In this document: piece after piece, positions 7,297 to 63,168 of the stretch
Layout of the letters: every line of letters begins with the position of its first letter
Position numbering within the stretch: position 1 is the stretch's first letter
Assembly (NCBI GenBank): GCA_051294375.1
Contig: JBJCIZ010000239.1
Span: 5,723,074 to 5,787,073, forward strand
Direction: 5' to 3'
DNA from: Paraspadella gotoi
Lineage: Eukaryota > Animalia > Chaetognatha
DNA: 64,000 nt
Notes under the pieces: generated by a model
Database searches by the model: none
The model's input: only the letters and a program-made list of their open reading frames with translations
Told to the model about the DNA's origin: nothing
Translations under genes and position numbers: made by a program

Positions 7297-8029
7297 ATGT
7301 TCCCGTCGCGCATCGTCGTCGTCGTCGTCGTCGTCGTCGCCATCGTCGTCGACGTCGACGCCAAGTGCGACTGCAGCGCAGAGATGTCCTGCGTCACGTG
7401 CGCTCTGCAGGGCGTGCGCTGCGTCAAGACGGAGGAATGCCCCGCGGTGAGGATCGAATAGAGTGGAAGAGGGGAAGGGGGGGGACAGTTGACTTTGTGA
7501 TTTTAAAATCTGTGTTCGTTGTTATACTACCCCGTTGCCATACTTTCAACTTATTCGAGTTATTGCTAATCTTAAAAAATATTCAGGGAGTTCGAAAGAT
7601 TTCCATTTTTATTTTCGTATTGTACCTTAAGTTTGAACTCTTTTTTTTAATAATAACAAATACGATATTAAAAAGACTGGAGCTGTATTAATAAATTATT
7701 AAATTATTATTAATTATTATTAAACTATCTTCAATTGCTACACTAATGACAAGAGTGAATTCGCGAGATGAGACCCAGCAATAGAACTTATGACTTGTCA
7801 AAGTATTCACGACAATATGCAAATGAGATTGATGAGATCAATCTCTTTTTCGGTTGAGTCAAAAGTTCATCTCTTATACTCGTCCTAACCATTTACCCCC
7901 CCCCTACCCCAGGCCGTCAGGGAGGAAGAAAGGAGGACCAACTTCCAATGCCGCTGCAACGGCGTCGTCGGTCTTCTGGCGTCGGCGCCGCTAGCGACGG
8001 TTGGCGTGGTGGCGGCGCTGTTGGCGTAG
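7297..8029 (+). CDS. Small secreted 8-cysteine protein, probably GPI-anchored; exons 7297-7446 and 7913-8029
   Basis: MFPSRIVVVVVVVVAIVVDVDA-KCDCSAEMSCVTCALQGVRCVKTEECPA|AVREEERRTNFQCRCN-GVVGLLASAPLATVGVVAALLA*. Phase-0 GTGAG...CAG intron, signal peptide, terminal CN followed by a hydrophobic tail, GC3-rich codons. Confidence 0.75.
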
Positions 8030-9228: not shown

Positions 9229-18068
<8,840 letters not shown>

Positions 18069-19728
18069 CTTCCTCTGTTTTGTTTTGTTAGTTAGATTGG
18101 TTTTGTTTTGTATTTAAAGTATTATGTTAATGTTTATTTAATGTGGTTTGAATCTTCCGAGGCGGAATCTTTAAACAACATCGTCTATTTGTGAGATGTG
18201 TTTCCTTAATTTTTTATGTTTCGATTTTATGTTTCCTTGTTTTGGGGTCGTTTTGTGTTTTTTTTTTTTTAATTTTTCAGCCAGTGGTCATTTCCGGTTC
18301 GGTAGGGCGCTCCAGCGACTCCTCTCTCTGTCTTCCGCTCCTGTCTTTTTTGCTCCTGTCTTTAGCTCCAATCGACCGCAACCTTTTCTCTGATTTTTCT
18401 TCCGTTTGTGTCACAAACGACCACAACAACGACAACAACGACGACGACAAAATTCACACTTTGAGTGACTTTTTTGGTTTCGACTCGAAAGAGTCGCTTC
18501 GATTTTTAACGGAAATCCAAATCTGGAAATAAGAAAATGTGTACATATGTGTTATAATTATTTATTCTCAATTTCTCATTTATATTCACACTTCGGTAAA
18601 CAATAACTAGAATGAACAAAAAAGCGGTTTGCCCAAAGAGAAATCTTGGCAATGAATTCAGTGGCCAAGCAACTTCTAATTTTCTCTCTTGATATTAAGA
18701 TTAGAATATACGTACAATTAAACAATCGAAACATTCTTAGAAAGATTATACCACTTCATAGATAGGGAAGTGAATAAAAAAAAACTATAATAGAGTCTTA
18801 ATTGAAAGCTTACAGGGACCTGTTATGTTATTGTCGTGTGAGAGTGATAGGGGGCATAATTCAAGGCAAGATAGCTTATTTTTTAAATTAATGGATAATC
18901 TTTATATTAGTAATACCAATTTCATATCACTTTGGAGAGATCGGGTCTTTTTTTCCTCAGTTTAGTTGGAGGATGTAGTAGGCGTAATTAATGCAAATGA
19001 TACGATCACGCGAATCAGAAAATTAAACTGAATCAATTTTGTGTTATAGAATAAACGAATGATTCTAGTATTGGGTTTTAGCTGCAGGAAATAACTAAAA
19101 AAAAATATTTTTTATTAAAGAAATAAATCTTAAAACTGACAGAATCGTAAGATCGAAACAACAACAGCAGGTTAAAGAAAAACAACTATTTTTTTTCGAT
19201 TTGTTTTGATTTTAAATTTTATCAAAAATTCAAGATTCGAGTGTTTATTTTACCCTCGCGATGAAAAATTCGCGATAAGAAAGGAACTTTGATTTTATCG
19301 AGTCTTGTTTCAGTTTATTTGTACGAAAACGTTTAAAAAACAACAACAACAACAACAACAAAATCATAAACGTAGTAAAAATAACAAATCGGCAACTAAT
19401 GTCAGCGAGCGTTTATTGCTCGCTTATTCTCACTTTTCACTTAACGAGTCATGACTCAAAATTGAAAAAAAAATGTCGTCTTTTTTTTTCGTCGTTCCAA
19501 CGTTAAAAATTAAAATCTTTTAAAAAAATGTATTCATGATCAAGAAAATAATTATGAAAATCAAATCGGTCGCAACGTCGACTGTTCAAACTGGTTTTTG
19601 CGAGACCAATTTTTTTTTTCATCGAAATTCTGACCCAACGGTTTTTTTTTAGTTCTACCTTTAGTTTTCTCTTCTTTCATTTTTTATGTTCAGACATTTT
19701 TACAGTTTAAAAACACAGACAGAAAAGG

Positions 19729-23662: not shown

Positions 23663-24415
23663 TATAGTAGACTTATTTTGAAACAAATATACATATAAAT
23701 ATAATACATATCGCATTGTCCCTTCCAAGTCCACTCCTGCGAATCTCTCAAACGATTTCCCAAAGTGAGTCAATGCTGCGAATTCCGCTGGAATTGTTCG
23801 CAGAAGATCGAGCCTCACTCATTCGGAAGGCAGGGTCTCTTTAACGGAGACCGCGTCGGGTTGGGAAGTGAGTTTCCTCTTGAAGGCAGCGGATGAAGAA
23901 AGTTTAAAGCGAAAGTTTGCTCAAGTGTATCGTAGTAGTTTGGTTGTGCCTCGGTTGTAATACGAGCAGAAAACTAGAAGTTGTATCTTTTGTCAAATTA
24001 ATCAATACGTGTTTTCTGCGGGGCAATTTTTCTCGAAACAAACGCCAAGAAACAAAAGATGTTTCTTTAGAAATCATTCGTGATTCATAAATATTTAATA
24101 ATTGATAAGACATTATTCAAGACGAATCCCAGGTACAAATAGTCACAAAACGGTACAAATTACATACTTACATACTTACATACTTACATTCGTACATACT
24201 TAGTTAAAGAAAAAAACGTGTTTATCTTTTAAAATGTAATTACGAAACAGAAATTACTACGAGTATCATTTGTTTGTTTTTTCTCTCAGCCACTCGCTAC
24301 CTCTGCGACTGCGACGCCCCTTTCGCCCGCTGCCTAAAACTGGCGAAAACAATAGAGACTCACGTTTTGGGTCACATTAACTTCAACGTTCAACGAAGGC
24401 GTTGTTTCAAAGAGG

Positions 24416-24498
<83 letters not shown>

Positions 24499-25033
24499 TA
24501 TTGATTGATTTATTGATTTATTGATTGATTGATTGGTTGATTGATTGTTTGTGAAGGTTTTTTGGATGAGTCGGTATAAAGTTTCAAAGCTACAAGATTT
24601 TGTCTAAAAAATTGGACATTGAGAGTGAGTTTCATTCCAACAAAAAAAATTTAAAACAATATTTAAGATATTTTCCAAAAAAAAAAAACCCGGTGCGTCT
24701 CTAACGACTTTTTCCGACCCATTTCTCTAACCCCTTCCCCTCATTATCTCCCTCCGACCGAACCTTTCCGACCGCTTCCAAGGGTCGCCCCCAAGTTTGC
24801 CTAGAGGAGCGAGTCCTCCCAACTCCTCGCTGGAGCCGGCCCAGTTGGAGCCGCTCCAGTTCGATCGGCAAGGACTGCGTCCGGTGGGGAGAGAGCGAAA
24901 ATGGTGAGGTCAAATGGAGATTCTACGATCAAAACACTTATCCTTATTGAAGAGTGAATAACTTACCATTTTTGGGAGAAGAGTCGCCATGACTACTGTT
25001 GTTTAATTATTATGATTTATGAATATAGATATT

Positions 25034-25267
25034 TGAAGAGACAGTAATTATTGTTATGAGTTAGTGATAGAACCGTTCAATATAAGCAGTCCCTGAGCTT
25101 CGGATCAGGCTGTAACACCATGTTACAGGCGAGTTAAGCGCCCCGTCCCTCTTAACTGCCAGACGACCACCGGGCTAGAACCCCGGACCTTTGGGTTGGG
25201 AGGCGAATGACTTGCCTCCGGCACCAATGGCCGCTGATGAACGGTTGGTGGATTTTAGTCCACCATA
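25034..25267 (+). mobile_element. Family-C solo-LTR-like element (TG...TA, 4-bp TSD TATT) with internal tRNA-like cassette on the minus strand
   Basis: TATT|TGAAGAGAC...GTCCACCATA|TATT. The reverse strand reads GCGGCCATTGGTGCCGG...GGTTCTAGCCCGGTGGTCG. Confidence 0.8.
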
Positions 25268-25945
25268 TATTGTTTAAAAATTTATAGACGAAAGATGCTA
25301 TGGCCGTTTGTTTAAATCGTCCACACGTTTGAACAATGTCAGCCAAACGATGATAACTCGTGTGATAACGGAGAATTCAAAAGGGTTGTCAACGTTCATT
25401 TTAATGACAGCCACGAATTAGATAACAAAAATGATTATAACGACGAAATTAATGACACCAGCGATAACAACGATAATTTTAAGGACAGAGATAATCGAGA
25501 TGTCAACAATTGTTGTGATAACAACAACCATTTTAATGACAGCGACGAACTAGACGACCGTAATTTTTATGATGATGAGACGAAACGTGATCAAGTTACC
25601 GATGTCCATTTTGAAATCATTTTGACGACGACGACGACGACGACGACGACAATAACAAGGAATTATGTAATTTAACGCGATTTTCTCATTCATTTTTAGA
25701 TACTTAACTGTCCTCATTTGTTCGTTTATACTGCTTGTTTAATTTTTGACGCATTGTACACTTCTTCGTCAGGGGACCATGAAATTTGGCTTGGATTGAA
25801 AATTTTGATTGATTTTCAATATTTTCAGATTGACTTTACAATCGTTATTCGCCATTTTTTTTCTTTTTCTGCTCATGAAATAAATATTTTGAACGTCTTA
25901 TGTTGTTCAAATATTATTTTAAACCAATGTAAATTGTTCTCCTCC

Positions 25946-28135: not shown

Positions 28136-28384
28136 TGTGGCAGCAAGACTTAAAGCTGCCTCACTGCCTCAGCTTCGTCTCAATGGCTGAGCAGGCTAAA
28201 TCATCTCATTCCATCCGTGCGTCCCGGGTTCAATCCCTGGGTATCCCGGTTCTGGCTTAAATGTGACGGTGCCGGTATAAACATGCCAGTGACAGGAGGC
28301 GGTCACTGAGGGTCCGCAGCCCCTACGCCAGTTGGTGAGATACCCCGCGCCCCGGGTATCACAGGCTATCCTCCCGTTGCCATA
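28136..28384 (+). mobile_element. Family-A solo-LTR-like element with tRNA-like A/B boxes, TSD AGTT
   Basis: AGTT|TGTGGCAGC...GTTGCCATA|AGTT. TGGCTGAGCAGG is A-box-like and GGTTCAATCCC is a B box. Near-identical to 48960-49216. Confidence 0.85.
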
Positions 28385-28951: not shown

Positions 28952-29259
28952 CTCTTCTCACCGAAGAAGTGAAAAATATTACAGGATCCACAACAGCCAA
29001 TTCGTGAAGACCATTCGTAAACGCCGACCGACTGCAGCATCTCGGCTAAACGCGACCGCCGCCCGCCACAGCTCCGACCCGCCCTGGCGCCGCGGCACCC
29101 GTCCGACCGCCCGTAAGGATGACCATGGCAGCAGATGATTACAAAACCGGAAATGAAAGAAGAAAAAGGAGTATAATGTCCCGAATTCCCAGAGGGCTTG
29201 ATCCTCAGGGAGCTGAACGCGTGCGGCGGTTGTCAGAATAGGAAAAAAAAGCGCGAATA

Positions 29260-30548
29260 CTAGGAAAAATCTCGAACCCCATGAAGATGGCTAGTGAAAA
29301 CGTCCCTTTCTTGGGCCGCGACTGCCGGTCGGCCTCGACGAGACGACTTACGGCGCGTCTCGCTGCACTCCAAAATCGCCGCCCGGAGTTGACCGAGTCT
29401 AAAACTCCATGCAAAAGCGATTCGGTTGGGGTTTTCGACCCTTGGTCCGAATGCATGTCCCAGTTTTTGCATTCTTCGGGATTCGTCTTTTTGGTCTGTT
29501 TTGCTAGTTCGGCACGACTGTCTCGGATTCCAGCTTTCGGCACGGACGAGACGATCCCGGGGTCGTCGTTGTTTTTGTATGGAGTGCCCGATGTGACAGG
29601 GAGAAGGCGGCCTTATCTGTGCCTGACTGTTTAACGAAAAAATGAAAGGTTGTTTGACCGCCGCTCCGACCGCCGACGCCGCGGCCGCCGCCGCCGCGTA
29701 AGGATGCATGGCGCGATGATACAAAACGGAATGAAAGAAGAAAAAGAGTCCGAATTCCCAGGCGGCCAGGGAGCTGCGGCGCGGTTGGCGGGCCGAGTGG
29801 CGTCCCTCCTTGGCGGACTGGAACGGCGACGAGGACGACGACGGCGTCTCGGTCGACGCCTCGATGGAATCCTCCATCAAAAGTTTCGCGGTTCCATTTT
29901 TTGATTCTCGGGATTCGTCGTCGTCGTTGGCGTTGGATTCCAGGCGGACGAGGTCGTCGTTGGGAGGAGAAGCGGAATCGCCTCTGGAGATGAGGAGGAG
30001 GAGGAAGAGGAGGAGGAGGAGGAGGGGTGTTTTAAAAGAGGGAGTGAGATGAAATAGAAATTGGACGAAATCGGAGTTCCACGCTCCAATAGGTTTGATT
30101 ACGGTTGTACTCGTGATTTTCCGCAAAGTAGGTACCTTTGAGAGTCGATTTCGGAACCTGACGGTCACAAGCTGGTAGTGATATTCTATGAGCCACAGTC
30201 TCACGATATAGGTGATCTGCTTACGCCTTACGGGCGGGGTAAACTTCTATGCATCTACCCCCCCCTCTTTCATCTTTCTCTCTCAAGATTTCATCGACTT
30301 TCCTCAACGGACCTGGCGTTCTTCCAGTTGCAGAATCCCCATCCGCTCTTCCATTTGGCCATGCAAGCGAAGCCAAAGACCCAAGCGGCGACGGAATCCG
30401 CGACGCCGTCCAACACGTAGGCGATCTGCTGCTGTCGCTCGGACACGAGCGGCTCCGGAGCGGCGCTGCTGCTGGCGGCGCCGGTGACGCTGGTGGCGAC
30501 GCTGGACGCCAAACGACGCCGCGTCATCTCGAGACGTTGACGAGCGAC
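29260..30548 (-). CDS. Partial gene of unknown function (exons 30548-30313 and 29983-~29600); 5' part lost in a gap, 3' part noisy
   Basis: GC3-rich exons joined by a phase-2 GT-AG intron (..WKNAR|GDSASPPNDD..). Contains an HPYAAAAAAA tract. No domain recognised. Confidence 0.45.
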
Positions 30549-32282: not shown

Positions 32283-32855
32283 CATATATATAATTCACTT
32301 TCTCTGCCGTCTCTAAATAAGAAATATACGTATTAATTTTGTTTCTATCTTTTATAATTAAAAAAAAATAATACTCAGGAACCGTACACCAACTGGGTAT
32401 TATCGCTAATACACCGCAGCAGACTTCTTTTGGACTAGAGCTACTGCTGCTGCTCTGCAGCAGCTGATATGCCGCAGTTGCTGCTACTGATTTTATCTCG
32501 TAAAGGAAAAACTGAAAATTCGAGCAGAGGTCGATATCACGTGACAATTGATAATTCTTTCGCGAGTTAAACAAGGTGTTTTAAAGTTTAGGTTAAGTTT
32601 AAGTTTAAGTTTTGTTTAAATTAAACAAAGTCGTTTTACTAATCTTACCTTCACTTCTTTACTCTGAAATGTCTCGTTCGGTTTCATGTCCTGAGGGAAA
32701 AAAAAACCAACTGAGTTATAACTTGAATATCATTTAACGTACATACAATATTTTAAACTTTTTATATATTCATTTTAAAATCTCTCATCGAGTAAAACAA
32801 GTAATGCGGCAACTGTTTTTAAATATCATAACTAATTTTCAACTAAGTAACACAA

Positions 32856-33090
32856 TATGGTTGACTAAAATCCAACAATCGTTCATCAGCGACCGTTGGT
32901 TCAGGAGGCAAGTCATTCCCCTCCGCAACCCAAAGGACCGGGTTTCTAGCCCGGTGGTCGCCTAGCAGTTAAGAGGGCTGGGGCGGTTAACCCGCCTGTA
33001 ACACGGTGTTACAGCCTGATCCGAAGCCCAGGGACTGCTTATATTGAACGGTTCTGTCACTAACGCATAACAATGATTACTGTCTCTTCA
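32856..33090 (-). mobile_element. Family-C solo-LTR-like element
   Basis: Reverse complement of 25034-25267. Flanks ACAA/ACAC match at 3 of 4 positions. Confidence 0.85.
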
Positions 33091-33178
33091 ACACTTTTAA
33101 AAATGTAATGTCCGAGAATGACGAACTTCGTCACTTTCCGTCCGATAAACAATCCAGGTATCAAATTTCGGAACGGAC

Positions 33179-41514: not shown

Positions 41515-44500
41515 TCAAGTTCCATCCCGACGCCTCTCCACTTCCCCCACGACGGAGATCAACGCCTCCGGCTTCAGCCAATGACGGGATCGTCCCCCAA
41601 CGCTGCGCCGTCGTGCAGAGAAGCGTCAGGGAGGCGGCGCGGGCGTTCCTAACACCCACGCCTTCCAAGATGGCGTCCTTAGATAGAGGGCGGCGCCGCT
41701 GGTGGCGCTACAGTAGGTCGAGACCTCCCCGATCGATGGATAACGACAATCGAAAGTCGGTCTGAAAAAAAAACAAGTTTGAGCAAACAATGTCGAATCT
41801 GCCTACGATAATTTCGCGGTAATCAGTTAAACAGATGATAATCACGATAATTCTTTGTGATCTCTACAGATCATAACAGATCATAACAAAACAAATCATA
41901 ACAGACTTATTAATAAATCGATGAAAATATCTATCAATCAATTGAACAATAAGTAAAAGAACCTGTGGCTGCGCTTTTAGCGGATTAGACTGAACTTTTA
42001 CTGCAGCACAATTAATATTTTATAATTTAAAAAAATATTTTATCAATAAATATAATATTTTAAACATTTTGTTCATTATTTTTTCTTGCATAATTTTTTT
42101 TTAATTTACAAAATTTTTTTTAACTTGCATTATTTTTTCAACTTATTCAGCCAATCCATCATTTTATCTCAGTGAGAGAGAGAAACATTAAAATTTTAAA
42201 AAAATTCAAGTAAAAGTAATGTTTGCTTTTTTCAATTTAAACTCATTTCCAATGGCACGATTCCATCAAAACTTCAGTTCAATCAGTTCAATCACCTACT
42301 TTCCCACACGCACACTAAATTTAATCTCTATCCATTTATCTAATTATGAGTAATTAGAGTAATTATGAAGTAATATAAGCAAAAAGATTTAAGTAAACCT
42401 GACTTATGATTTTTTCCATTTAAACTCATTTCCACTAGTACGATTCCATCAAAACTTTATATCCAGCTCAATCACACAGGTTCCTACCCAACCACAAAAT
42501 TTCATTCCAATCCAACCATCCAATCACAAGTAATTGGAGTTATTTGCTAGGGTGGGACAGACGGACTGAAGAGAAAAGGCCGGGACCGACGGAGATGGCC
42601 AGATTTGACCCGTTCGACCGATTGACCGATCGACCGGACCGGGACTGACCTGACTCTCTCTCCTCTCTCCCTTTCCCTCTCTCTCTTTTTTTCTATCTCT
42701 CTCCAAACCTTACCTGGACAGACTTTGACAAAACCAAGATCTGTGGATAAGGCGCTACGTGGGCTGAAGAAGACTATCCGTAACTTCTATAACCCCCTCT
42801 AGCAGCCATGGAACGGGTCCCTGGGCTTGGAACCAGGCTTGAGGGTTTGCCATGCCCCCAAGGCGGCTTACGGCCGTCCTCACGCTTCCCGCAGGGTAGG
42901 TACCGGGTTGGGATTGAACCTGGTACCTAGTGGTCATGAGCTGATGGCTGATTCTAGGCGGGGTGAACCTAGGCAATGCCCGACTACAGATCAGATTCAC
43001 TGGATCACTCTCTAGAACGCAAACTACTTTCTTACAAAGTTTTCTACTACGTTGTTACTGAAGATTCCTGATTCCTGATTTCTCTACGACATTTGATTCC
43101 TCTTTGATTGATCTCAATTTTTTCTACGGATTTCGTCTCGTCTTTTACAATTTATTATTTACATTTCGAGCTTCAGTTACATAAAACGTTTTGGGATTCT
43201 TTTCGTCAAGACTAAGTTGCGGCCAAGTGGACCATTCTCACCTCAAGAGGCGCAGAGAGTCAAGCTTCTCTACACGGACGGACATCTTTTTTTTTTTTTT
43301 TGCATAATTTATCATAATTCGATATTCTGACAAGAAATAAATTAATGACCGACAATATTGAGGATGTGGACCGACGGACCGACAAAGTGGATTATAGAGC
43401 CGACTAAAAAAATAAAATCAATTAAAGTTAAATACCTACTTCCATTGTTGATACAATTGGATCAAAAAATAAAATAACACAATCTTAAAAGTATAATAGT
43501 AGTTAAACAACATCATTGCAACTTTCAAAAATAGGAAGATCATGAAATCTATGTACCAGATACACAAACGAATGGAACAAAACAACTTTTTTGCTCAAAT
43601 TTTAAATCTTTTTGATTAATAGAATTAAAGTCAAAACAAAGGAGAACTTTATATTAGTCAGTCTCTGTCAGTCGTAGAGAATTGTTTTAACACCAGTAAA
43701 TATTGTTATCGATATATGGCATCTATCATATATCATCAATTCATCATTATGATAAAGATCACACACTTTACACTCTTGCTTTTTATGTCCCCAGACGTCT
43801 AAAAAACTAAAACCTTATTAAAAAAAAAAAAAACAACACAATTTTTTTCCCCTTTTCAACCTGGATAAGGTAAATACGGCCTCGTTGCTTGGCAACACCA
43901 TCGCGGCGTCCTCCAATCGCGGCCCGAGATTCGGCAACGGACGCAGTGACACGAGATCCACGTCGCAAGGAAACGGCGTCGCGCGTTTCACCGTCAACGC
44001 CGCCGGCGTCTTAGTATCGGCCTGGTCAGGGATTATTAGGTTATTAGGGTTATGGTTTTAAATCCAAAATTGAGAATTAGGGTTTGGATCATAAAGTAGG
44101 TGAGGGTTAGAATAGATATAGATTAGGATTTAAAAAAATAGGGTTAAATCTAAGGGATTATGGTCCAGAAAAGGGCGCTTTTTTTTAAAAAAAAAAGAGA
44201 GAGCCGCAAATAGAACGTACGAACATTTTCTTTTGATTGATTGACTTAATTGATTGATTGTTTTATTGATTTGGTTATTTTACTGATTCGATTTGATCAG
44301 ATTTATTTACTGATTCGATTTGATCAGATTTATTTACTGATTAGAATCTATCAGATTTATTTACTGATTCAATTTTATCAGGTTTTGTTACTGATTTGAT
44401 TTGATCAGATTTATTTACTGATTCGATTCGATGAGATTTATTTACTGATTCGATTCGATGAGATTTATTTAGTGATTCCATTCGATGAGATTTATTTACT

Positions 44501-45647
44501 GATTCGATTTGATCAGATTTATTTACTGATTCGATTCCATCAGATTTATTTACTGATTCAAATTGATCAGATTTATTTATCGATGGATCGACATCAAAAC
44601 AGCTTCCTGTTCACCGCGCGTTTTGCAGTAAAGAAAACTTCCACGGGCGAATTGAGGCGTCGACGGAGTTGATGAGCGCCGACAGAAAGGAGCGGAATCG
44701 CTGGAGCCTTTGTCTCATCCCTTCCGCGCTCCTCCAAGGACAAGTCGTACCGAAGAGTCGAGAGAACATTGTCCTCGACGCCCTCTCCCATCCCGCGGGA
44801 GTCGTCGTTATGCAGGCGCCGATCCTGCATCACCTCCAGGCTGCCGTTGTGCTGCGACGAGGCGCCCTGAGGCTGCGCGGACAGCAGCGTCAAGCGTCTT
44901 CTGCCGCGGGCGCTGATTTGATCTTCAATGAACGCCGCCGATGACATCGGGTAAAAGTTGGCCTGGATGGAAAGCCACAGACCGAAGTTGAAATTATAAA
45001 AAGACCGTTTCATCCAATGTGTTGCGCCGCAGTGACTTTATTTTTATGTGTATTTCTTGTGAAAAGACATGACATGACGTGACATGACATGACTACAATA
45101 ACTTTTTTTGCCTGTGTTTTTATGACACGCACTGCATCAGAATTTCATTTTTTATTTGTTATAGTTTTAGGATTAGGCGTTTAATGCTAAGGGGGAATGG
45201 ACAGACGGACGGACGGCTGGACGGGCGGACTGATGGAAGGACGGACAAGACTTCATTTTTTTGCAGTATTTATCATAATTCGAGTTATTGATATGATAAA
45301 AATGATTTACCGACAAGATTTTTGGGTGGGACCTAGACGAACCCGACAAAGTGAATTATAGAGTCGGAATCTGCTGATAAGCAGATCCGACTAAAAATTT
45401 TTTAAAAAAAAAAAAAAACGTTTTCACTTCTCCCAACGCACAATTTACTGACCTGAATCGGGAGTTTGGCCAATCGTCGTCGCCTCATCATCGCCAGGAC
45501 CTTGGCGTCAGTGAAAAAGTGGGAGCCAGAGTCGATATCTGTATCGATGCGCATCACGGGCTCGAGATTGGTGAATCTCTGTATGAAGTTAAAGTCTTTA
45601 ACTCCAATATAATAAATAATAATAATTAATAATAATAATATAATAAT

Positions 45648-45683
<36 letters not shown>

Positions 45684-47283
45684 AAATAATAATAATAATA
45701 ATAATAATATTATAATAATAATATAATAATAATATTTATATAAATATTAATTTAATTTTATAATATAATATAATAATATTAATATATATATAATAATAAT
45801 AATAATTTTTATAAATTATATTAATGTACCCAAATATACTAATTTACTACTAGCTGCTATTTTTTTTTAATAAGATTAGTTTGTTTTTTATTAAAAATAT
45901 GTCTAGGGTTTAAATTAATTTAATGTCAATGTTATACAAAGTTTTATATTTTAAAAAAGATTTATAGTTTAAAAATTTATTCCTTAAAATATTCAATTTT
46001 TTTAATTTAAGAATTAAATTTAATTTAATTTATTATCAATTTGTTTGAATTTATTGTAAATAATGTTTCTCTTCTTAATTTTAGCAAATTAGATCATAAA
46101 ATTGTCTGCTATATTTCTGTTTTAAAGCTATTTTCGTTAATTAAAAATTGCCTACTTTTATTCAGTTAACTACTAGGTAAACAAACAAAAAATTGTCTAT
46201 TACCTATAAGAAAATATCTTTACCTAAGTTCTATCTTCCAACCTCTTTCTTTTGTTATCATTCTATCCAACCATCCTTCTCTCCCACTATCTTTTTATCC
46301 TTCAACCCTAACAAACCCTTTGAGCAAAACGCGGTTGGTGATGCGAAGGGATCGACGCAACACAGAGTCTTCGCAGGATTGAGGCGATAAAGAGGACAGC
46401 TCGCCGTCCACCCTCCGCCCTCCCACCATTTCTACAAAGTGCTCGATCATGGGAAACACGACTCTGACCGTCGTCACCAATGGACCCGCAATGATCACGG
46501 CCATCAGCGGTGAAGAACTTTTATTTGCAAGGCCCGAAGGTTGGAATAGATACGCGCCGCCTCTGACTGACGGATACCACAAAAACCTATAAGAGATAAA
46601 CTTCTCAACTTTTGTCTGTCTGTCTGTTTGTCCGTCCGTCCGTCCGTCCGTCCCACCTTAGCAAAAAACACCAATTAATTGTGATTGGATCGATGGATTA
46701 GAATTAGATTTTGTGTGTGGGTAGGGAAGTGTGTGATTGATCCGGATATGAAGTTTCGATGGAATCGTGCGAGTGGAAATGAGTTTAAATGGGAAAAACA
46801 AAAAAATATATTTCACTATTTGAATGCCAATTACTCGTGAGTGGATGCGGCGATTGACTTGATATTTTGTATATGGGTAGGAGAGTGTGTGATTAAGCTG
46901 AAAATCAATTTTTGATGGAATCGTCTGAGTGGAAATGAGTTTAAATGGAAAAAGCAAAAAACCTGTTTCACTAATTAATTATGCCTTTTTTCCTTTTATA
47001 ATAAGTGTAAATGCAAGATGTATTAATTAATCAAATATTAGTCAGTTTATTAATCAATTAGTCAATTAATTAATCAATAATTTATTAATCAGTCAATTAA
47101 TCAATCAGTTAATTATTCAATCAATCAATTTATTTATATATTAATTAATTATTCAATCAATCAATTTATTTATTAATTAATTAATTATTTAATCAATCAA
47201 TCAAGTCAATCGTTATCGGCATTATTGTCATCGTCGCCATCATCGTTGCTTTTGTCGGGTCAAGAGCGTTTATATTGTTTGGT

Positions 47284-47333
<50 letters not shown>

Positions 47334-50300
47334 AAACGAAATAAAAACATGATGTTGCGATTGCAAAATGATAACATGCACAAATGCGATGCCTAATTTT
47401 ACGAGTTGCAAAATGATGCAAAATGATGCAAGTTGAAAAAATGAAGCGAATTGTAAAAATAATGCAAATTTAAAAAATTATGTGAGTTGAAAAAATGATG
47501 TGTGGAAAAAATGATGCGAGTTGAAAAATTCATGCGAGTTGAAAAAATGATGCGAGTTAAAAAAATTTTTACAAAAATTGTGATTTATCATCTGATTAGC
47601 TGATTACCGCTTAATTATCGTAGGCAGATCCGACATTGTTTGCTCAAACTTGTTATAAAAATTTTATTAAGTTTTAGATTTAAAAAAAAAAAAATTCAAA
47701 TCATTTTAGTTACGTTATGGGATTGTTCGTGTAGTCTTCTAGAAATAGAAGGAGCATCTTTATAGGTTGTTTATGCTCATTGTATATCTGTAGTATATAA
47801 ATTAACATTCTGTTACTGCAATTTACGATCTCTTTCAGTAGTAATTAATATTTTGTATTCGTCAAGTAGGTATATTAATTAGTTCAGCTAAGTGTGCTAT
47901 TATTCAGGAACCCGGGATTACTCCCTCTTACAAACCCTATTTGCGCCACGAGATTCGACCGTCCCTCCGACGTCGCTACGATCATTCGTCTCAACAGCCC
48001 CCGGGGCCAGTCGAATTCGGCCGCTAGACAACCGTTGGTCAGCGTGATGCGGCTTCTGACGGGCCAACGGTTCAGGGATATGGGAAACTCGGTTGATTTA
48101 TTTGTGAGTTTTTCGTGGCCGACATCGTTTAAAACGGTAAGAGCAGCTAAGTGAAACTTGGAAACGTTCTCTCTCGATGAGGACGTGATAATGGAATGAA
48201 TGTACAGCCTCTTTATTTCAAAAGGTTCCATCTCTGCTTCGAAGACCAACTCATAGAGACCCGCCTGAGGTTTCCCTAGATTTGACCAGACCGGGTCGAT
48301 CTGGTGGCGCAAGATCTTCGCCGTCGTCTTAACTTCGACGTCAAACCGATTGATCCGCAGTCGAATTATCTCCCGTCGTGCAAAGGGAAGCGCGTTGGCC
48401 AATATGATAACAGTAATAGAGGGAGCCAAGCCTCGGATGTCCACGATGACGGGTTCCACTCCCACCGACTTTTGATTGGCCAAAAGGGTCACTCGAAGCG
48501 GCTCATCAACATCGCCTCCTTCCCGAAAAGTCCTTGATTCCATAAGCGACCAAACGGCCCCCACCAGCGCCCTCTGCGCCTTGACGAAACCTTCACAAAG
48601 GCGTCGCGCAATGTCGGCGGCATTGTGTTCCTTGGAAGTGCCGGTAACATCGTCGTGGTGTTGGAAAAGGGCGAGCTCTTGATGGGCGGAGCGGAGATCT
48701 TGAAATTCGCGGACCTGTGGTCGGGTAATGCAGCCAGTTCACCCCGCCCTTAAGCATGACACCTTCGGTTATGACCCCGATTGTTTATTGAGTAAATCTC
48801 ATAAGGTACCGGCATCGATACCCAAAGGTAACTAACTACCCAATGGGAAGCGTGAGGACACCCGGAATCCAACCAAGCCTGGTTCCAAGCCCAGGATATA
48901 TGTTCCTTTACTGGTGACTGGTGAGGGTCGTTAAGCGAGTTAAGGATGATTTATCCATGTGTGGCAGCAAGACTTAAAGCTGCCTCACTGCTGTCCGTCC
49001 TCAGCCTCGTCTCAATGGCTGAGCAGGCTAAATCATCTCATTCCATCCGTGCATCCCGGGTTCAATCCCTGGGTATCCCGGTTCTGGCTTAAATGTGACG
49101 GTGCCGGTATAAACATGCCAGTGACAGGAGGCGGTCACTGAGGGTCCGCAGCCCCTACGCCAGTTGGTGAGATACCCCGCGCCCCGGGTATCACAGGCTA
49201 TCCTCCCGTTGCCATACATGTACCTTTTTGTCACGGCGTGAGGGAGGACCGTCGCGGGCGCCGGCAGCGAGAGTGAAGAATACATCGGCTGCGCGGAGGA
49301 GGGACTCGAGGCGGCGGCCGAGGACTTTCCAAGCCATTCGGGAAGTGAAGTAGCTGCGGAAGAAGAATGGCCTTTTTTTTTTTTACAAAAATGCCTCATT
49401 TCGTCTTTAATTTAGATTTAGTTCTTCAGCATTAACCTTAAAAGGCTAAGGATTTAATTAAAGATTTGGTTAGGGATAGGTTAAGAGTAGGGGGAAGTGA
49501 AAGTTTAGTTTAGTTTAGCAGTTATATCTTGAAAACTATCCTATTGGTGAATACTAATCTGTAATTATTTTTTTTTTTACAAATATGGTAGCCTGGTCAG
49601 CTTATTTTATATATAGTATATTATTACCCTTATATAATATTAAAATTTCAAAATAGTTTATTTTTAAATTCTAAGAACAGATTCAGATTCCTTGTTAAAA
49701 GTTGATAAAGGAAAATATAAATCTTTTTCAAAAATTATGTCATTAAAAAGGTTAAAATTACAAAAAACTATATTTTGAAACTAAAAATTGAAAATCGGAG
49801 TCTTAAATATAGTTTTTTACATTTTTGACCAACTTAATGAAAAATTTTTTAAAAAAGAATTATACTTTCTTTTATCAACTTTTTGCAAGAAATCCAAATC
49901 CGATCTTAAATTTAAAAAAATTGTATTTTAAAATTTTAGCTTATTATACAGGGTTCGGACTTAAAACTTACCCCCATAAGAAAAATTATTATTTACTTTA
50001 ATTATTTGTACTTAATGATATATCTGAAAAATTTAGTTTTATCAATTATTTGATTGGTCATTTTAGTACATGTTTACCTTATGTCAGCTACTCGTTTATG
50101 AAGTATACCTTACTTAGGACCCTTCCAAAGATGAGTAGACGATATGAAAAATTCTTTACATTTTTGCTACCATTGTATATTCAATAATGGGTCAAGATTG
50201 ATGTAATTCCGGTTACAAGTACTGTTGAGTGTTACATTTAATTCGCCCCATACTGCAATACCCAAATGATTTTAGATTTTGCATTATATGGGGCATAATG

Positions 50301-53300
50301 CCCTGAGGCCAAAATTTAGAGAAATTATATTAAAAAAAATCTTACTTTATACTAGTAGCTGAGCATATTATATTGTATAAATAATATAGATATACCTCAA
50401 ATTACTGCAGCATACTGCAGCTTTAATTTTCTTTTAAGAAATAAAATTATAAAGTACTAACTGATTTATATTGTGTGCTATACAGTTTTGGCTTATGCTA
50501 ATAATTTGATTTTTTGGTTGAGAATTCCTTTTAAGGTATTTTAATAGCGCACAAGGTACAAATTTTTTATCTCATTAACTACAAAAGTTAGATGAAAGTT
50601 ATCATTACAACTTTTTGACATTTTAATAATTTATCTATGATAATTAACAAAAACTATAAAATTTAATGAATGATGATGATGATGATTTTTTAAGGGTTTT
50701 TCAAATTTTAGCCCATTTATCATTACATTTTTTTAAATTTGTAGTAATAACCTTTATCTAACTTTTTAATCTTTATCAGAATTCATTTAAAAAAATTTAA
50801 ATTTCCTAAAAAATTTTTTAAGCATTTCTTATATATTGTTAAATATTAATATGCTTCCATGAGGAAAATTAATTTAATCAAAATTTAACATCATAAGTCA
50901 ATTTGGTTGTAAAAAGACAAAATACTTTTATCGCAGACTTTTTCATATTGTAAAAAAATGTTAAATTCTGGCCCGCCTTACTACTTACCCACTCCAATAA
51001 TCGTCGTCGAAATCACTGTATGTGAAGAAATCTCCGCCAAATATCTTCAGCTGAGAAACCTCCCCCAAGTCCTCGTCAGCCATTTGAAAGTATTCCGACA
51101 GTGTCCCGAACTTAGCCGTCGCGCCCATTTCCTCAGAGCGGGCATTGATATAATTGAAGATCTTGTTCCAGTTTTCAAACTGCCGATCAAACTGAGATGA
51201 TTGAATGAAGCGAAAATCATCGCCAAATATCACCAGCACAACATTGTGCTTAAACCACAGCGACTTTTTTCTAAGTTGATCAAGCAGCTTGATTGCCTGA
51301 TCATGAATGTTTACAGGCCCAATGGTTGGTGCTGAATTTGGTCTCCAAAAATCATATTCTACGCAAATCCAATAGTAAGGGCCGCAAGAATGTTTGATGG
51401 TGTAGGTATAGAGAGGGTTCAATGAAACCCGAAGATCGTCAATGCCCTCAACATCCCACTCTTGGCGCCAAACAAACTCAGCGTCTGCATTTTTATCCAA
51501 AAACTCTTTTATCTTGTAGTGGATTCGATTTATGAAGGAACGCTTGAGACCAGCTAATGATCTAATCCTAGCCGCTGTCGCTGAATGACCAAAAGGGTCA
51601 ATGTTAAAGCTCGTCTTTGGCGCAAATCCCAATTTTTGTCTGAGAAAAAGATGGCCTTCCAGCATCTGGTCAATGAGCGAGTAGACTGTGGGGTTAGCTT
51701 CGTCCGGCATTACCCAACCTCCACCAACGATCTCAAATCGGCCCTCCTTTATTGGCATGATTTTTTTTAAAAGCGCCCCCCTGTTTGTTCCATAATCTTT
51801 AAATCTATATTTAATCCTAATATCTAACCCTAATATTTAACTACCCCGTGTCCGTTCGAGAGTGACACCAAAAAAATCTTTACTATACTTTAAATATTTA
51901 GTAAACATAATTCATAAGTATATCATTAGTTGCAGAACTACTTGAAGTTTGTTATGTATAAGTTTCATTTCGTTTTTAATTTACTATTCTTTGTTTAATT
52001 TTTTATCTAACACAGTAAAATTAGCAAAAAAAGACAATTTTAGGCGTGTTCTTGATTGAATTTTAAAAATATTTTATATCATAAGAAATCCCTATTAATG
52101 GTCTAATCAATGAATTATCGTAATGTTGAGTAATTTTTCAGTAATGATTTTTCATTGATTTTTTTAATTGTTAATCTTAAGTTTTCTTTATACAATTCGT
52201 CCAATTAGAAAAAAATGCTATCCTGACCATGTTCTTGACTGTTTTGAATAATTATTTTATATTGTAAGGATTCCCAGATAATTATTAATTTAATGGCGTA
52301 AATGAATTTTAATAATTTTAAGTATTTAATGAATAATAAATTTATAATGATTTTCTTTTTTTAAAAGATTCAGTTCTTTACTGAAGATGAAATTGGATGA
52401 CCATATTTAAGGAAATATCAAATTAATCTTATGAAATTAAAATATAATAAACGTCAAGTACTTTGCTACAGAATGAAGAAAAAAAATTTAAAAAATATTT
52501 ATCCAATGAGAAATGGTACGCATTTTTTTGGTGTCACTCGCGAACCCTACCCTGAATCCCTCAACCTGTACAGTAGGGTGGATTGATGAAAAGATTGAGT
52601 GATTGAACATTATTTTTTTGCTGCCTATGGACATGTAAATAATAAATTTTAAATCATTTTAAAAACAATTTTAACATAACATATAGTAAATTCAATTATT
52701 TATGTAGTAATATCCTTATAAAATCGTTAAATTTTAAAATTTTTATTTTTATTTTTAAGAACAGATTTGGATTCGCCGTAAAAAACTAAGAAACTTTTAT
52801 AAAATATGTCATATGATATTTTAATGTTTGGATCACAAAAAATGACTAAAACATTTTAACATATATAAGTTTCTACAACAAAGAATAAAAAAGTCATAAA
52901 TTTTAACCTTTTTTCCGGTTTTAAACGCTGATGATGACAGAATTTTTGATAAGATGTTTTATATTTTTGATTCAACTTTTCATAAAGAATCTGAATCTTT
53001 ATAAAAAGTTTTTAAAAATTTTTTTTAAAAATTTATTATTTTATAAGAATATTACTACAAATTTATTATATTTTACTATTCTGTTCCCGAGACAATATGA
53101 ATAAAATATTTTTTGTACTAGTTAATCATAATATCTCACATCTAAATATCCTTGTTCGATCATTCAAATAAATTTTTTTGTTCTTGAGTGTTCCACTCTA
53201 CTATACAGAACCCTAATCCCTAATATAGTCCCCAGCAAATTCCTAACTTTAAACCCTATCCATAATTTTTAACCTTATCGCCTAACTTAACTTTAGACAT

Positions 53301-53873
53301 AACAAGTTTGAGCAAACAATGTTGGATCTGCCTACGATAATTAGGCGGTAATAAGCTAATCCGATGATAAATCACGGTAATATTTTCTGACTTTCATAAC
53401 AAATTGTAACATAACAAATTATAACAGACTTCTTAATAAATCTATAAATCAATTGACCTATCAATCATTACCATTAGCTGCGCCAATACCAACTTGCATA
53501 ATTTAGTCAAATTGCATAATTTGGTAATTTTGCATAATTTTGTCAATTTGCATAATTTGGTCAGATTGAATAATTGCATAATTTAATTAAGTTGCATTAT
53601 TTGGTAAACTGGTATAATTTGGTAAACTGGCATAATTTGGTCAACTGGCATAATTTGGTCAACTGACATAATTTGGTCAACTGGCATAATTTGGTCAACT
53701 GGCATAATTTGCTCAACTGGTATAATTTGGTCAACTGGCATAATTTGCTCAACTGGCAAAATTTTGTCAACCGGCATAATTTGCTCAGCTGGCATAATTT
53801 GCTCAACTGGCATAATTTGGTCAACTTGCAGAATTTGGTCATTTGAATAATTTTGTCAACTTCCATAATTTGG

Positions 53874-53906
<33 letters not shown>

Positions 53907-56900
53907 CAGAGAGAGATAGAGAGAGGGAAACTTTTAAAAATTAAAATAAATGTGTCTTTTAGTTTTCTAATTTAAACTCTTTTCCACTTTCATTTCCTTT
54001 TATCTATCAAATTTTTAATGAATTTAATAATTATGAGTAAATATAAGTAAAAATACTTCAAGTAAATATAACTTTTGTTTTTTTCATTTAAACTCGCGCG
54101 ATTTCTTCGAAACTTTATATCCACCTCAATCATACACTTTCCTACCCACACAGAAAATTTCATTCCAATCCAATCCAATCACGAGTAATTAAAGTTTAAT
54201 GAAAAGTTGGGACGGACCGACAGACAATGTTCTGATATGATAAAAATTATTTACCGACAAGATTTTGGGGTGGGACCGACGGACCGACAAAGTGAATTAT
54301 ACAGTAAGGCGTAGTAAAATTTCTAAATTTAACTTTAATTAAAATTTTAAAAGTGAGGAACGAACAACATTATACTAATGAACATTTATGTATAAAAAAA
54401 ATTTTAATAAATTTTACAATTTACGCAGTAGGCTATATTTATACTAGTACTAATGCAATAAATGTTAAAATTTTAAAACAGTTTTTTCTCAGATTTTTTT
54501 GCAGATTTGTATTCGTCATAAAAAGTTGATAAAAAGAAATATAACTCTTTCTGAAAAATTGGAAAAACCTATATTTTAAGCTGAAAATTCAAATTTTATA
54601 TATTAATATTTAATTTTTAACCAACTTAATGAAAGAATTTTTAAAAATGATTTATATTTTCTTTTCTCAACTTTTGACGAGGAATTCAAATCTGCAATCA
54701 AAATTAAGAAAAGCCTATTTTGAAATTTTTCGAATATATAAAAATACTATTCTAAGTTTTGATTCACTATCCTGTAGAGTCGAGATCTGCTGATAAGCAG
54801 ATCCGACTAAAAACTAAATCAACCTAAAATTTAGGCTGAAATGGGGCGCTTTCGGAAAATATGATCCCTTGATTAAAGTTTTCATCATGTCGCGCATCGT
54901 CGTGTTTGCAATATCCCACCACCAGGAAAGGTAAATCGACTCGGCCCAGATGAAAGTCAATTTTTTATATTGATGGAGTTTGACAACCGCGTTGGTGATG
55001 ACGTGAAACGAGTCCTCGAAAGCAGGGGGCGTGTAAAGAAATGGCGACTCCTTCCCTCCCCACCACAAATGATTTGGTGGGCTGCCTTTAAAAGGCAAAG
55101 TGATATCAAGACCCCTCTATTAGCAAAGAAAATTGCTATAGAATAGATCAAGTAATTATAGACTTAAAATTAACATTATTTGAGTCGGTATTTTGCTTTC
55201 CCATGGAATCGCGATTTTAAAATTATCAAATAATTTTTTTTTTTATGTAGACTGATAAAAATTATCTCTCTCTTAACGGCCTCTTCTTTTTGGTTTTTCT
55301 TTGTTTGCGCTATACATTGGAACCATGAAAACAAAAAAAGTTGACCGGAATATGACTCACAAGAGCGATCAAATGATAACTAAAAAATTATAGGAACTTT
55401 TCAGATAAAATCGATTTTAATCATATATTTTAGATAATTATAGTATAAATTTTTAAATAGTATAATAGTTTTTATCATTATTAATATTTATTTCAATAAT
55501 ATTATTAATAATAACATTATTATTATACTGATTGAATTTAATTAAACTTGCTTATTAACCTATTTATTCGTAAATTTTTTTGTTATTTGGCTTAACCTTA
55601 ACCCTATCTCATATTAAATGTGGCCAGTCAGTTTAGCCTTTTTAACTTAAAAAAGTTTTATTAAACAAACTTTTATAATATTTAATATAAGAGGCTAATA
55701 AGTAATAATTCATTCCAATCCATCCATCCAATCACGAGTAATTGGAGTTTTTTTTTCTAAAGTGGGACGGATGGACGAACGGACGGACAGACAGACGGAC
55801 GGACATCGTTCTTTTGTATAATTTATCATAATTCGATGTTCTGACATGATTTAAGTGAATGCCCAACAAGATTGAGGGGGCGGACCGATGGACCGACAAA
55901 GTGAATTATAAGCAGATCCGACTAAAATATTGCTTATATTGAACGGTTCTGTCACTAACACATAACAATAATTACTGTCTCTTCATTGGTGAGCCCGACT
56001 TCCGAACAGAACAGCAACAACAACACTTTCAGGCGACATGCCTCAACCTGGCGATGCACTTTCCGCCAACAACAATTCACAGAAGAGACGCAACAGACTT
56101 CTTCCTACAGGAGGGGGGGATGTATGGAGGACTAAAATCCACCAACCGTTCATCAGCGGCCATTGGTGCCGGAGCCAAGTCATTCGCCTCCCAACCCAAA
56201 GGTCCGGGGTTCTAGCCCAGTGGTTGCCTAGCAGTTAAGAGGGACGGGGCGCTTAACCCGTCTGTAACACGTTACAGCCTGATCCGAAGCTCAGGGACTG
56301 CTTATATTGAACGGTTTTGTCACTAACACATAACAATAATTACTGTCCAATGTACTGTCCAATGTATAGAGCAAACAAAAAAAAAATTAGAAGAGGTTGT
56401 TAAGAGAGAACTAATGTGGTTATTGATTTTTGGTAGATCTATTGATTATCGCAGGATAACAGTATGAAATTGGTACAACCAAAATAAAAATTATCTATTC
56501 ATTTAATAAATAAGCTATCTTGTCCCTGACTTTGGACAGGCTTTGGTAGTTTAAGGCCTCCATCACTCTTACAAGATAATGACTTGGCAGGTCCTTGCAA
56601 GCTTTCAATCAAGACTCTCTCACAGTCTCGTTTATTCACTCCCAAAGTACCTGGCTTCCCTATCAATGAAGTGGTATAATATTTCAAAGAATGTTTCAAT
56701 TGTATGAAAAGACCACTCTCTCAAGTATTAGATCGGGGAATACTTATTGTACTCCGCACTAGCATCAAAATACAAGGAGCTGAATTTTATGATATTGGTA
56801 CAACCATTATAAAAAATATCCATTTATTTAATAAATAAGCTATCTTGCCCTTGATTTTGGGCAGGCTTTGGTGGTTTAAGGCCTCCATCACTCTTACAAG

Positions 56901-57475
56901 ATGAGATTTTTTTGTGGAGGTTCTCAACCCCTCTACACGCCCTGCGTCAGACCCTCTACACGCCCCTGCCTCGAAAAAGTGTTCCGCGGCCGTCTTGTGC
57001 CATCCCGGGTCCGTGTGTGAAAAAGGCACGAGAACGATACGCAACGGGTCATCCCGCCGTCGCGAATCGCTGTAGTTCATGTCAACTTTGTCCCAGTCTT
57101 TATCTCCGCCCCCGCGTCCAGGCATTCGAAGTGACTCGTAAAGTCGAAGGCTTGAAATGTCGACGGAGGCTTTGCGTAGATCGTTGGAGCATTTCATCGA
57201 TTCCTCCTAGACCATTGAGGAAATTTATTTGAAGCAAATAGACCGGGCATTGTAAACTACTCTTTACTGTATATGCTAAATTGAGGTCCCCTTTAGGCTT
57301 TACTCTTAGTTACCCGTTTGGCGACCTTGGTTAAACTGGAATATCCGTCATTGGCCAGAGGAAAATTCCATAAGCAATACCAGTAGACTAGGAGGAACAG
57401 TAGGAAGGTGAGAAGCACCCAGCGATAGTAAATCTTGATTCGGAGGAGCATTAAAACGAATCTTGAGCGAATCAT
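41515..57475 (-). CDS. MAN2A: Golgi alpha-mannosidase II (GH38, MAN2A-like); exons 57475-57314, 57206-56970, 55014-54868, 51746-50989, 49353-49224, 48714-47936, 46586-46317, 45576-45453, 44962-44615, 44021-43861, 41761-~41515
   Basis: N-terminal type II anchor. Motifs VPFSHTDPGW, FIWAE, EIVGGGWVMPDEA, IDPFGHS, RIHY, GDDFR, YWSGYFTSR, LFQHHDDVTGT, GAYLF, QANFYPM, DRRLHNDDSRGMGEGV. The last exon has apparent indels. The symbol is family-level. Confidence 0.92.
42742..42988. mobile_element. Family-B solo-LTR-like element, intact, TSD GATC
   Basis: GATC|TGTGGATAAGG...CCCGACTACA|GATC, 247 bp. The reverse strand carries GGTTCAATCCC and GGTTCCAAGCCC T-arm-like hairpins. Confidence 0.88.
44280..44580. 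repeat. Minisatellite, ~27-bp unit
   Basis: TTTACTGATTCGATTTGATCAGATTTA repeated. Confidence 0.9.
45010..45396 (+). mobile_element. DINE-1/HINE-like Helentron-associated repeat
   Basis: GGAC/AGAC microsatellite, core TTTATCATAATTCG...GACAAAGTGAATTATAG, and 3' hairpin AGTCGGAATCTGC-TGATAA-GCAGATCCGACT plus an A run. Further copies at ~42240-42570, 43270-43410, 46615-46970, 54030-54300, 55710-55925 and 60590-60950. Confidence 0.65.
46588..47932 (-). mobile_element. TG...TA element (TGTAAGAG/CTCTTATA), TSD GGTT, coextensive with intron 46587-47935
   Basis: Minus strand: ATA G GGTT TGTAAGAG ... CTCTTATA GGTT TTTG TGG. Confidence 0.75.
48716..49220 (-). mobile_element. Family-B-related LTR-like element filling intron 48715-49223, with family A nested at 48960-49216 (TSD CATG)
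   Basis: Ends CCCGACCACA|GGTC on the minus strand. Shares GGAAGCGTGAGGACA and CAAGCCTGGTTCCAAGCCCAGGA with 42742-42988. Confidence 0.82.
51843..52554. mobile_element. Nested MITE
   Basis: GTTCGAGAGTGACACCAAAAAAAT ... ATTTTTTTGGTGTCACTCGCGAAC inverted repeats around an AT-rich interior. Confidence 0.7.
52569..53205. mobile_element. Nested Tc1/mariner-like MITE
   Basis: TA-CAGTAGGGTGGA ... TCCACTCTACTA-TA. Confidence 0.5.
53490..53878. repeat. Minisatellite, 18-bp unit
   Basis: CATAATTTGGTCAACTGG, about 20 copies. Confidence 0.92.
55022..56969. mobile_element. TIR element (GCAGGGG(G)CGTGTA.AG) with perfect 7-bp TSD TTTCGAG, coextensive with intron 55015-56969
   Basis: Minus strand: TTTCGAG|GCAGGGGCGTGTAGAG ... 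CTTTACACGCCCCCTGC TTTCGAG|GAC. Confidence 0.85.
56123..56347 (-). mobile_element. Family-C element (tRNA-like cassette on + strand, ~56156-56227); partial second copy at 55931-55986
   Basis: Reverse complement of 25034-25267. Confidence 0.85.
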
Positions 57476-62033: not shown

Positions 62034-63168
62034 TTAATTAATTAAGGGCAAATATTCATGCTTGTCCATGGGCCTCATGTAGTCCTTTCCCAGCAACACC
62101 TGCAACATCTCGACAATCTTCTCGTCCTCGCACGGCACGTGCACCAGGAAACCGTGGAGATCGGACGAGCAGACCCGGACGGTAAAGTCGTAGGACAGGA
62201 CGCCTGTACTTTGCGAGACCGTGCCATGGGGTCGCCCCGAGGCCACGAGCCAAACGTCGGTGGACACGTTCGCGATTCTGTATCTGTAGAAAAATCCGTT
62301 GTTCCCGTATTCGGGGAGATTCGGGTCTTTTTCTTCGACGCTGTAGTCTCTGGCTTTGACATCGGATCGTGAGGCCCCTAAGCGGATCATCTCTGGAAAA
62401 CTGGGTTGAGAAAGAAAATAGGCCTTGTTTTGCCAAAGCACCCCCCGTTTCGTCTTAAATACGAAATTAAGCCAGTTTCAAGGTTTAAGGATTAAGGTAA
62501 AAGTTAGGGTTAGAGATCAGGTCGGGGATTAGGTTAAGGATTAGGGTTGGGAGTTAGGGTCAAATAATAAGTTAGGTTTTGGGATTAAGGCTGGGGATTA
62601 GGGTTAGGGATTGGGTTATTGATTAAGGCTGGGGATTAGGGTTAGGGATTGGGTTATGGATTAAGGCTGGGGATTGGATTATGGATTAAGGCTTGGATTA
62701 GGTTTAGAGATTGGGTTATGGATTAAGGCTGGGTAGGGATTAGGTTATGGTAAAGGATGGGGATTAGGGTTAGAGATTGGGTTATGGATTAAGGCTGGGG
62801 ATTAGGGATTAGGTTATGGATTAAGGCTGGGATTAGGGTTTGGATTGGGTTATGGATTAAGGCTGGGGATTAGGGTTAGGGATTGGGTTTTGGGTTCAAT
62901 AAAACTTTCAGGTTAAACGTTAAAATAAAAATCAAATAAAGAGATGATGTCACAGATGATGCTACAGTTAGACAAAGCTATCTCACTCACTCTTATATTC
63001 TCTCTCTCGCTCTCTCTATCTATCCTCCACTCCCCCTTGCACTCCTCTTACTCACGCTTCGACTCGACTGTATCCAAAAAAGTCCACATCGCTATCTTCG
63101 GGCAAAATGCTGCACTGACGCCACCAACCGAGCAGAGTCCCGCTGCGGAGGAAAGGACGAATACGAAC
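62034..63168 (-). CDS. Fukutin-like / LicD-family phosphotransferase, last two exons (63168-63056, 62400-62034); 5' exons lie in the terminal gap
   Basis: PFLRSGTLLGWWRQCSILPEDSDVD matches the LicD/fukutin GT.LGW.R...IP..DxD motif. VCSSDLHGFLVHVPCE...LLGKDYMRP matches the fukutin C-terminus. The intron is phase-2 GT-AG. Confidence 0.8.
62480..62897. repeat. Interstitial degenerate TTAGGG-like array inside a MITE
   Basis: GGATTAGGGTTAGGGATTGGGTTATGGATTAAGGCTGG units following a GGCC...CCCCCCGTTTC TIR-like end. Confidence 0.7.

Follow-up and report, generated by a model that had tools for sequence, protein, structure and literature searches.

The window analysed here, i.e. the complete 64-kb stretch of DNA, harbours on its minus strand a gene for a Golgi alpha-mannosidase II of glycoside hydrolase family GH38, into which the intron of main concern, intron 5, is inserted (Table 1). 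Five of the seven frames tested gave Pfam matches, tblastn placed nine coding exons in order between about 57170 and 43860, and the best homologues share 45% identity with the encoded protein. The resulting gene model comprises 973 codons, is free of stops and contains SHxDPGW, IDPFGH, GDDF and FQHHD, which we take to be the catalytic motifs of GH38 mannosidases. A protein 4.1 (FERM) gene with about 12 GT-AG introns featuring weak donors is also encoded on the minus strand (7900-18070), and its protein matches are from animals. One of its exons, near 13180, is seemingly frameshifted, possibly by an assembly slip. An exon-sized frame at 24208-24417 specifies a phospholipase A2 domain (PF05826, E 1.7e-08). 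Further features are a dispersed repeat of about 240 nt, SINE-like by eye, whose copies at 25033-25274, 32849-33091, 56120-56347 and 5021-5202 are 77-93% alike, and a GC-rich segment that is duplicated locally (29071-29192 and 29663-29761) and yielded no Pfam match.

Table 1. Position, strand and basis of assignment of the mannosidase gene parts and mobile element copies discussed in the text.
Feature	Position	Strand	Basis
Family C copy, TG..TA, perfect AGTT TSD	28136-28384	+	sequence comparison
Family B copy, TGT..ACA ends, perfect GATC TSD	42742-42988	+	sequence comparison
Exon 6 (FLWY...GAYLF), two candidate donors at 3' end	46313-46586	-	tblastn, gene model
Downstream GGTT copy, first G completes acceptor	46584-46587	-	sequence
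Intron 5, 1,349 nt, GT-AG, phase 2, predicted	46587-47935	-	gene model
Right terminal 8-mer CTCTTATA, provides TA and pyrimidine tract for TAG acceptor	46588-46595	-	sequence
Nested non-autonomous Helentron (DINE-1/HINE type), single copy	46595-47656	+	window repeat comparison
Unique AT-rich residual, 268 nt, 28% GC, putative body of outer element	47657-47924	-	repeat comparison
Left terminal 8-mer TGTAAGAG, TGTNR type	47925-47932	-	sequence
Upstream GGTT copy, source of donor GT	47933-47936	-	sequence
Exon 5, Golgi alpha-mannosidase II (GH38)	47936-48714	-	Pfam Alpha-mann_mid, tblastn, gene model
Intron 4 element, family B relative, TSD GGTA/GGTC	48716-49220	-	alignment to 42742-42988
Family C copy, TG..TA, perfect CATG TSD, nested in intron 4	48960-49216	+	sequence comparison
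Intron 2, 7-8-nt repeat (one mismatch), ~25-nt imperfect inverted ends (18/25)	51747-54867	-	sequence
Intron 1, GC-AG, exact 7-8-nt direct repeat, ~16-nt inverted ends (one indel)	55015-56969	-	sequence

The introns of the mannosidase gene were compared with those of 18 homologous loci, 10 of which were taken as intron-bearing. The species compared are distant and the result therefore denotes non-conservation of position, not a dated gain. Recurrent breakpoints, each present in at least two loci, fall near reference residues 194, 251, 296, 352, 381, 413, 474, 514, 541 and 876. None of these ten ancestral positions is occupied in the window, where introns reside at residues 205, 254, 521, 564, 812, 893, 934 and 1048; intron 2 sits 2-4 residues from an ancestral intron. 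Each of the first seven sites is spanned in at least one homologous locus. At residue 812, the site of intron 5, all four readable loci are intron-free: L012 and L018 read through, and in L013 and L015 an intron follows three codons downstream, L012 being the only one that passed the automatic span test. Indels between mammalian isoforms weakly suggest that no intron is present at 812. Loss of the old intron set suggests that the mannosidase gene was retro-processed and then re-colonised by introns. In locus L012, two tandem versions of the FLWY-GAYLF exon are found (10068-10624) that are possibly mutually exclusive.

Read on the minus strand, the borders of intron 5 show GGTT followed by TGTAAGAG on one side and CTCTTATA followed by a second GGTT on the other. 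Both the exact GGTT flanks and the 8-nt terminal inverted repeats with a single mismatch (7/8), already noted in a first-pass annotation, are confirmed. The insert between the GGTT copies amounts to 1,345 nt (46588-47932), exon 5 ends on the first G of the upstream copy, and the inverted match does not extend beyond 8 nt. The longest exact direct repeat at the edges is 5 nt (GGTTT). We prefer to read the TSD as 4 nt because the inverted ends are then in register, and reject a 5-bp TSD, which would put them out of register. The annotation had also derived the donor from the TSD and the acceptor from the terminal TA plus G. This arrangement, with TSD bases 2-3 as donor and TA plus the TSD G as acceptor, is coherent as judged from the sequence, the junction itself being a prediction, and would yield a seamless mRNA in which one GGTT is kept. 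Removal as a GT-AG intron is predicted to restore the frame and to bring the F-L-W-Y motif into colinearity with the homologues. The predicted join of exons 5 and 6, IG^FLWY (the caret marks the junction), aligns gap-free with 16 homologues; FLWY is identical in two fish homologues and F-x-x-Y/F is aligned in most others. Retention of the intron leads to a stop 16 codons past the junction. A competing donor, GTAAGA, is located at +4 inside TGTAAGAG. Joining it to the TAG acceptor would shift the frame; the only acceptors that keep it are three AGs further upstream, all of which lack pyrimidine tracts.

Of the 1,345 nt inserted, about 1,060 belong to a Helentron. Enlargement of the intron by Helentron-like insertions had been proposed before; the type of element proved right, and there is one 5'-truncated copy and not several. 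About 140 nt of its 5' end including the 5' subTIR are missing, and it stops about 7 nt short of the right end of the insert. The copy carries a (GTCY)n microsatellite, an internal duplication and arrays, a 3' subTIR (47624-47634) and a weak 3' stem-loop (-1.9 kcal/mol). The 11-nt subTIR at its 3' end matches three of five intact 5' ends elsewhere in the window, where relatives are present at 42569-41772 and 54300-53299, and the family's 3' end terminates in TT in all three copies. The stretch 46595-46608 matches the part of the Helentron that lies upstream of the microsatellite, ranking within the top 23 of 125,035 positions, five of which are training copies. The independent sequence is therefore confined to about 7 nt at the acceptor end and 276 nt at the donor end. 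In intact copies, TAT immediately precedes GATAAA. At 41762-41850, a Helentron copy has its 3' end immediately before a probable acceptor, and this end provides the T tract. For the residual, no similar sequence was found within the 64-kb window, and its scores against families B, C and E and three other introns stay inside the shuffle range. Likewise, the window contains no second copy of the intron 5 element, the left 22 nt have no exact match in the metagenome contigs, and none of 716 candidates was an exon-5 homologue of similar length.

Elements that generate 4-bp duplications are at hand: the window holds one full copy of family B and two of family C, the latter 96% identical, with TGT..ATA ends and different 4-bp TSDs. 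The element residing in intron 4 (span 48715-49223; 244 nt when the nested family C copy is disregarded) is related to family B. It shares 154 of 201 aligned bases with the copy at 42742-42988, both ends are in register, and the alignment scores 98 compared with a shuffle maximum of -12. The splice geometry is G^GT ... CA+G, as in intron 5 (G^GT ... YA+G). From these comparisons, intron 4, with its dispersed TG..CA family and 4-bp duplications, is a stronger case of a transposon-made intron than intron 5. TG..CA ends together with a 4-bp TSD are found in the family B copy at 42742-42988, while intron 5 has TG..TA, and family B fits a solo LTR better than intron 5 does. A search of positions 42000-50000 against Rfam gave no match and hence no support for deriving families B and C from tRNA-like sequences. 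Pfam matches to transposases or integrases were absent from the 76 frames searched, 74 of which were drawn from 151 candidate non-exonic frames. Family E, with which the first-pass annotation had matched one end of intron 5, has to be dismissed as its source. All that the two have in common is TGTAAGAG, an 8-9-nt match that is internal in three of seven aligned family E copies, is not accompanied by a TSD and does not represent an element end.

Transposon origin seems to account for several neighbouring introns as well. Introns 1 and 2 look like a second element class. For intron 2, a join colinear with the homologues requires a non-canonical GG donor, the canonical alternative, a pair at 54823/51781, adding 26 residues. 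By eye, sequences like its inverted-repeat ends were also spotted at 62440-62477 and 49365-49400, 15-30 nt before probable acceptors of other introns. Intron 6 (45577-46316) allows two in-frame readings with donors 4 nt apart: in one, GTTTGT is paired with a GAG acceptor, in the other GTTAGG with a CAG acceptor.

We propose that intron 5 is probably the relic of a small non-autonomous TG..TA element with a 4-bp TSD, i.e. of an introner, with predicted seamless splicing. An integrase-type element of the class that gives 4-bp duplications here (families B and C) would have landed at an exonic GGTT. G^GT of the first TSD copy would have furnished the donor, and the acceptor would have arisen from the terminal TA and the second copy's G, the mRNA keeping one GGTT, and the element would have been spliced out from the start. 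Later, a Helentron may have inserted, and a deletion may have taken its 5' end along with the right arm of the outer element, sparing the 8 nt needed by the acceptor. Insertion followed by deletion would explain why the inverted match ends where Helentron similarity begins. Elements with 4-bp TSDs and TGT/TAT ends in the window and the adjoining intron 4 with the same geometry are consistent with a transposon origin; the resemblance of the 8-nt inverted match to native splice signals and the Helentron abutting the right 8-mer speak against it. On balance, the transposon mechanism put forward in the first-pass annotation is the one we favour for intron 5, though stripped of its support from family E and with no dispersed copy found in the window or the metagenome contigs.

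How far repeat and inverted ends exceed chance was assessed with nulls built from 28 donors and 25 acceptors, a small and unverified set annotated by hand in three genes. The score combines the repeat (4) and the inverted ends (8) in fixed register, with a maximum of 12. Intron 5 reaches 11, a value attained by none of 674 non-cognate donor/acceptor pairs, two of which score 10. When any register is allowed, a repeat of at least 4 nt coincides with 7/8 ends in one of 552 non-cognate pairs, and column resampling from 20 ordinary introns arrives at repeat plus 7/8 ends in 37 of 100,000 draws. Per approximately 24 introns, 0.01-0.04 such cases are therefore expected, and the combination seen in intron 5 is beyond chance. 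Both near misses scoring 10 involve intron 5's own ends, paired with an unrelated FERM donor or with the acceptor at 1987, the second CTCTTATAG acceptor in the window. G^GTTTGT, the donor type of intron 5, starts 4 of the 28 donors, and T is found at +3 in 10 of 28. Splice signals native to the window therefore imitate the pattern in part. The intron at 610-1987 has G^GTTTGT as well as CTCTTATAG^GT in common with intron 5, and a FERM-gene donor at 13079 reads GGTT-TGTAGGAG; these likenesses may stem from a bias in the native signals or mark older relics of intron 5's kind. Assignment of introns 610-1987 and 5 to one family is unsupported, as the left ends agree in 3/8 positions and the interiors are unrelated.

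It is on this mimicry that the foremost alternative builds, namely a lineage-specific intron devoid of transposon ends, for instance one formed when a staggered double-strand break took up filler DNA and a 4-5-nt repeat was left behind. In that case, the inverted ends would merely oppose a purine-rich donor region to a pyrimidine-rich acceptor. Exact junction repeats of at least 4 nt occur in 92 of the 552 non-cognate pairs, the GTTTGT donors and the second CTCTTATAG acceptor that give rise to the near misses are native here, and copies of the element turned up neither in the window nor in the metagenome contigs. In the part of the Daphnia study available to us, 4-12-bp repeats shared by intron and exon in neointrons are ascribed to staggered breaks (PMC4202315). 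We nonetheless consider this origin unlikely: under every null it is rare for a repeat to share its register with 7/8 ends, and 4-bp-TSD TG..TA elements are present, one of which appears to have built the neighbouring intron.

The acceptor could also have been rebuilt by a deletion in an older intron that brought the Helentron (TAT...GATAAA) up to its exon border. The right inverted repeat would then consist of Helentron sequence plus a 4-nt insertion and would be uninformative on the origin of the intron. Helentron similarity indeed starts at 46595 and thus overlaps the right 8-mer, intact copies have TAT before GATAAA, and the copy lacks its 5' part. By luck, however, the extra insertion would have to make the right end agree with the left in 7/8 positions, in register with the repeat, and the copy ending at 42569 is likewise 5'-truncated near the microsatellite, which makes this scenario quite improbable. 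Least probable of all is that the true donor is GTAAGA 4 nt downstream, combined with an in-frame AG upstream, at the price of 6, 7 or 11 extra residues, or with TAG, provided that the assembly contains a surplus T in the exon's run of five T (46585-46581): GTAAGA is nearer to the consensus at +3/+4, the sequence offers three in-frame AGs upstream and the seemingly frameshifted FERM exon indicates that assembly slips may occur, but GTTTGT has six matches to U1 versus five (consensus from general knowledge), the upstream AGs are without pyrimidine tracts and both variants disrupt the gap-free F-x-x-Y alignment.

Taking all introns of the gene together, it is conceivable, if rather doubtful, that several unrelated element classes act concurrently as introners here and have refilled an intron-stripped, probably retro-processed housekeeping gene with wholly new introns. 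On this tentative reading, TG..(C/T)A elements with 4-bp TSDs would make a seamless intron (G^GT, YA+G) out of any exonic GGTN, and TIR elements with 7-8-bp TSDs would make use of GC and even GG donors. If true, this would amount to genome-scale intron gain in a little-sampled animal. Well-supported transposon-made introns are fewer in animals than in protists and fungi, and three or four of them from at least two element classes, in one gene and at unshared positions, would render intron gain directly testable in the lineage. The geometry is general in that any element ending in CA or TA, combined with a 4-bp duplication, would leave a GGTN site with a clean intron. Taken by itself, intron 5 is no more than a probable example, old and overwritten, and greater weight falls on intron 4 and introns 1 and 2.

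Intron-making by introners, 4-nt TSDs and co-opted donors have already been described. The following comparisons draw on those parts of the cited papers that were accessible to us. Introner-like elements with 4-nt TSDs are known from Symbiodinium and Polarella glacialis (bioRxiv 10.1101/2020.10.14.339549; bioRxiv 10.1101/2022.06.06.494994, Fig. 2B). Like intron 5, they co-opt the TSD for the donor and leave mRNA length unchanged, and in class 9 the splice sites span the boundary between element and TSD. In the accounts at hand, their donor corresponds to TSD bases 1-2 (GHNN) with an acceptor lying entirely in the element, or both sites derive from an AGGH TSD, whereas intron 5 has its donor at TSD bases 2-3 and a TA+G acceptor. 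Moreover, the dinoflagellate families comprise hundreds of copies and intron 5 is a single old copy in an animal. The passages of the introner literature covered here contain no statement of the exact GGTN / YA+G rule, and we do not claim its absence from print.

As to the type of element, Ginger1, Ginger2 and Gypsy LTR termini are described with a 4-bp TSD and a TGTNR left terminus (PMC2836005). Intron 5 resembles Ginger1/Ginger2 in its 4-bp TSD and its left end TGTAA, which fits TGTNR. It differs in that the Ginger TIRs given there span 40-270 bp with TSDs of CCGG/CCGT or within RTATAY, compared with 8 nt and GGTT here; the right arm of the intron 5 element may have been deleted. The right end TATAA deviates from TGTNR, an asymmetry shared by both family C copies. 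The nested Helentron family matches DINE-1/HINE non-autonomous Helentrons, as far as these are portrayed in the part of PMC4067079 consulted, in 11-nt subTIRs, 3' stem-loop, microsatellite and T-rich ends, and the copy in intron 5 departs from them in lacking its own 5' subTIR. It is a passenger and not the maker of the intron.

Introners derived from LTRs and solo LTRs have been reported for Panicum virgatum, and others for sea urchin and Styela (PMC12130899, seen in part), indicating that introns can be formed by integrase-type elements, solo LTRs among them, and that animals possess introners. The MITE-derived introns of Fritillaria borealis, known to us from passages of a review (PMC11282704), resemble intron 5 in belonging to an animal, in having TSD and TIR and in occupying positions specific to the species. 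They are mostly non-canonical (AG-AC/AG-AT), in contrast to the GT-AG borders of intron 5. Intron 5 works like an introner and is a candidate member of this group.
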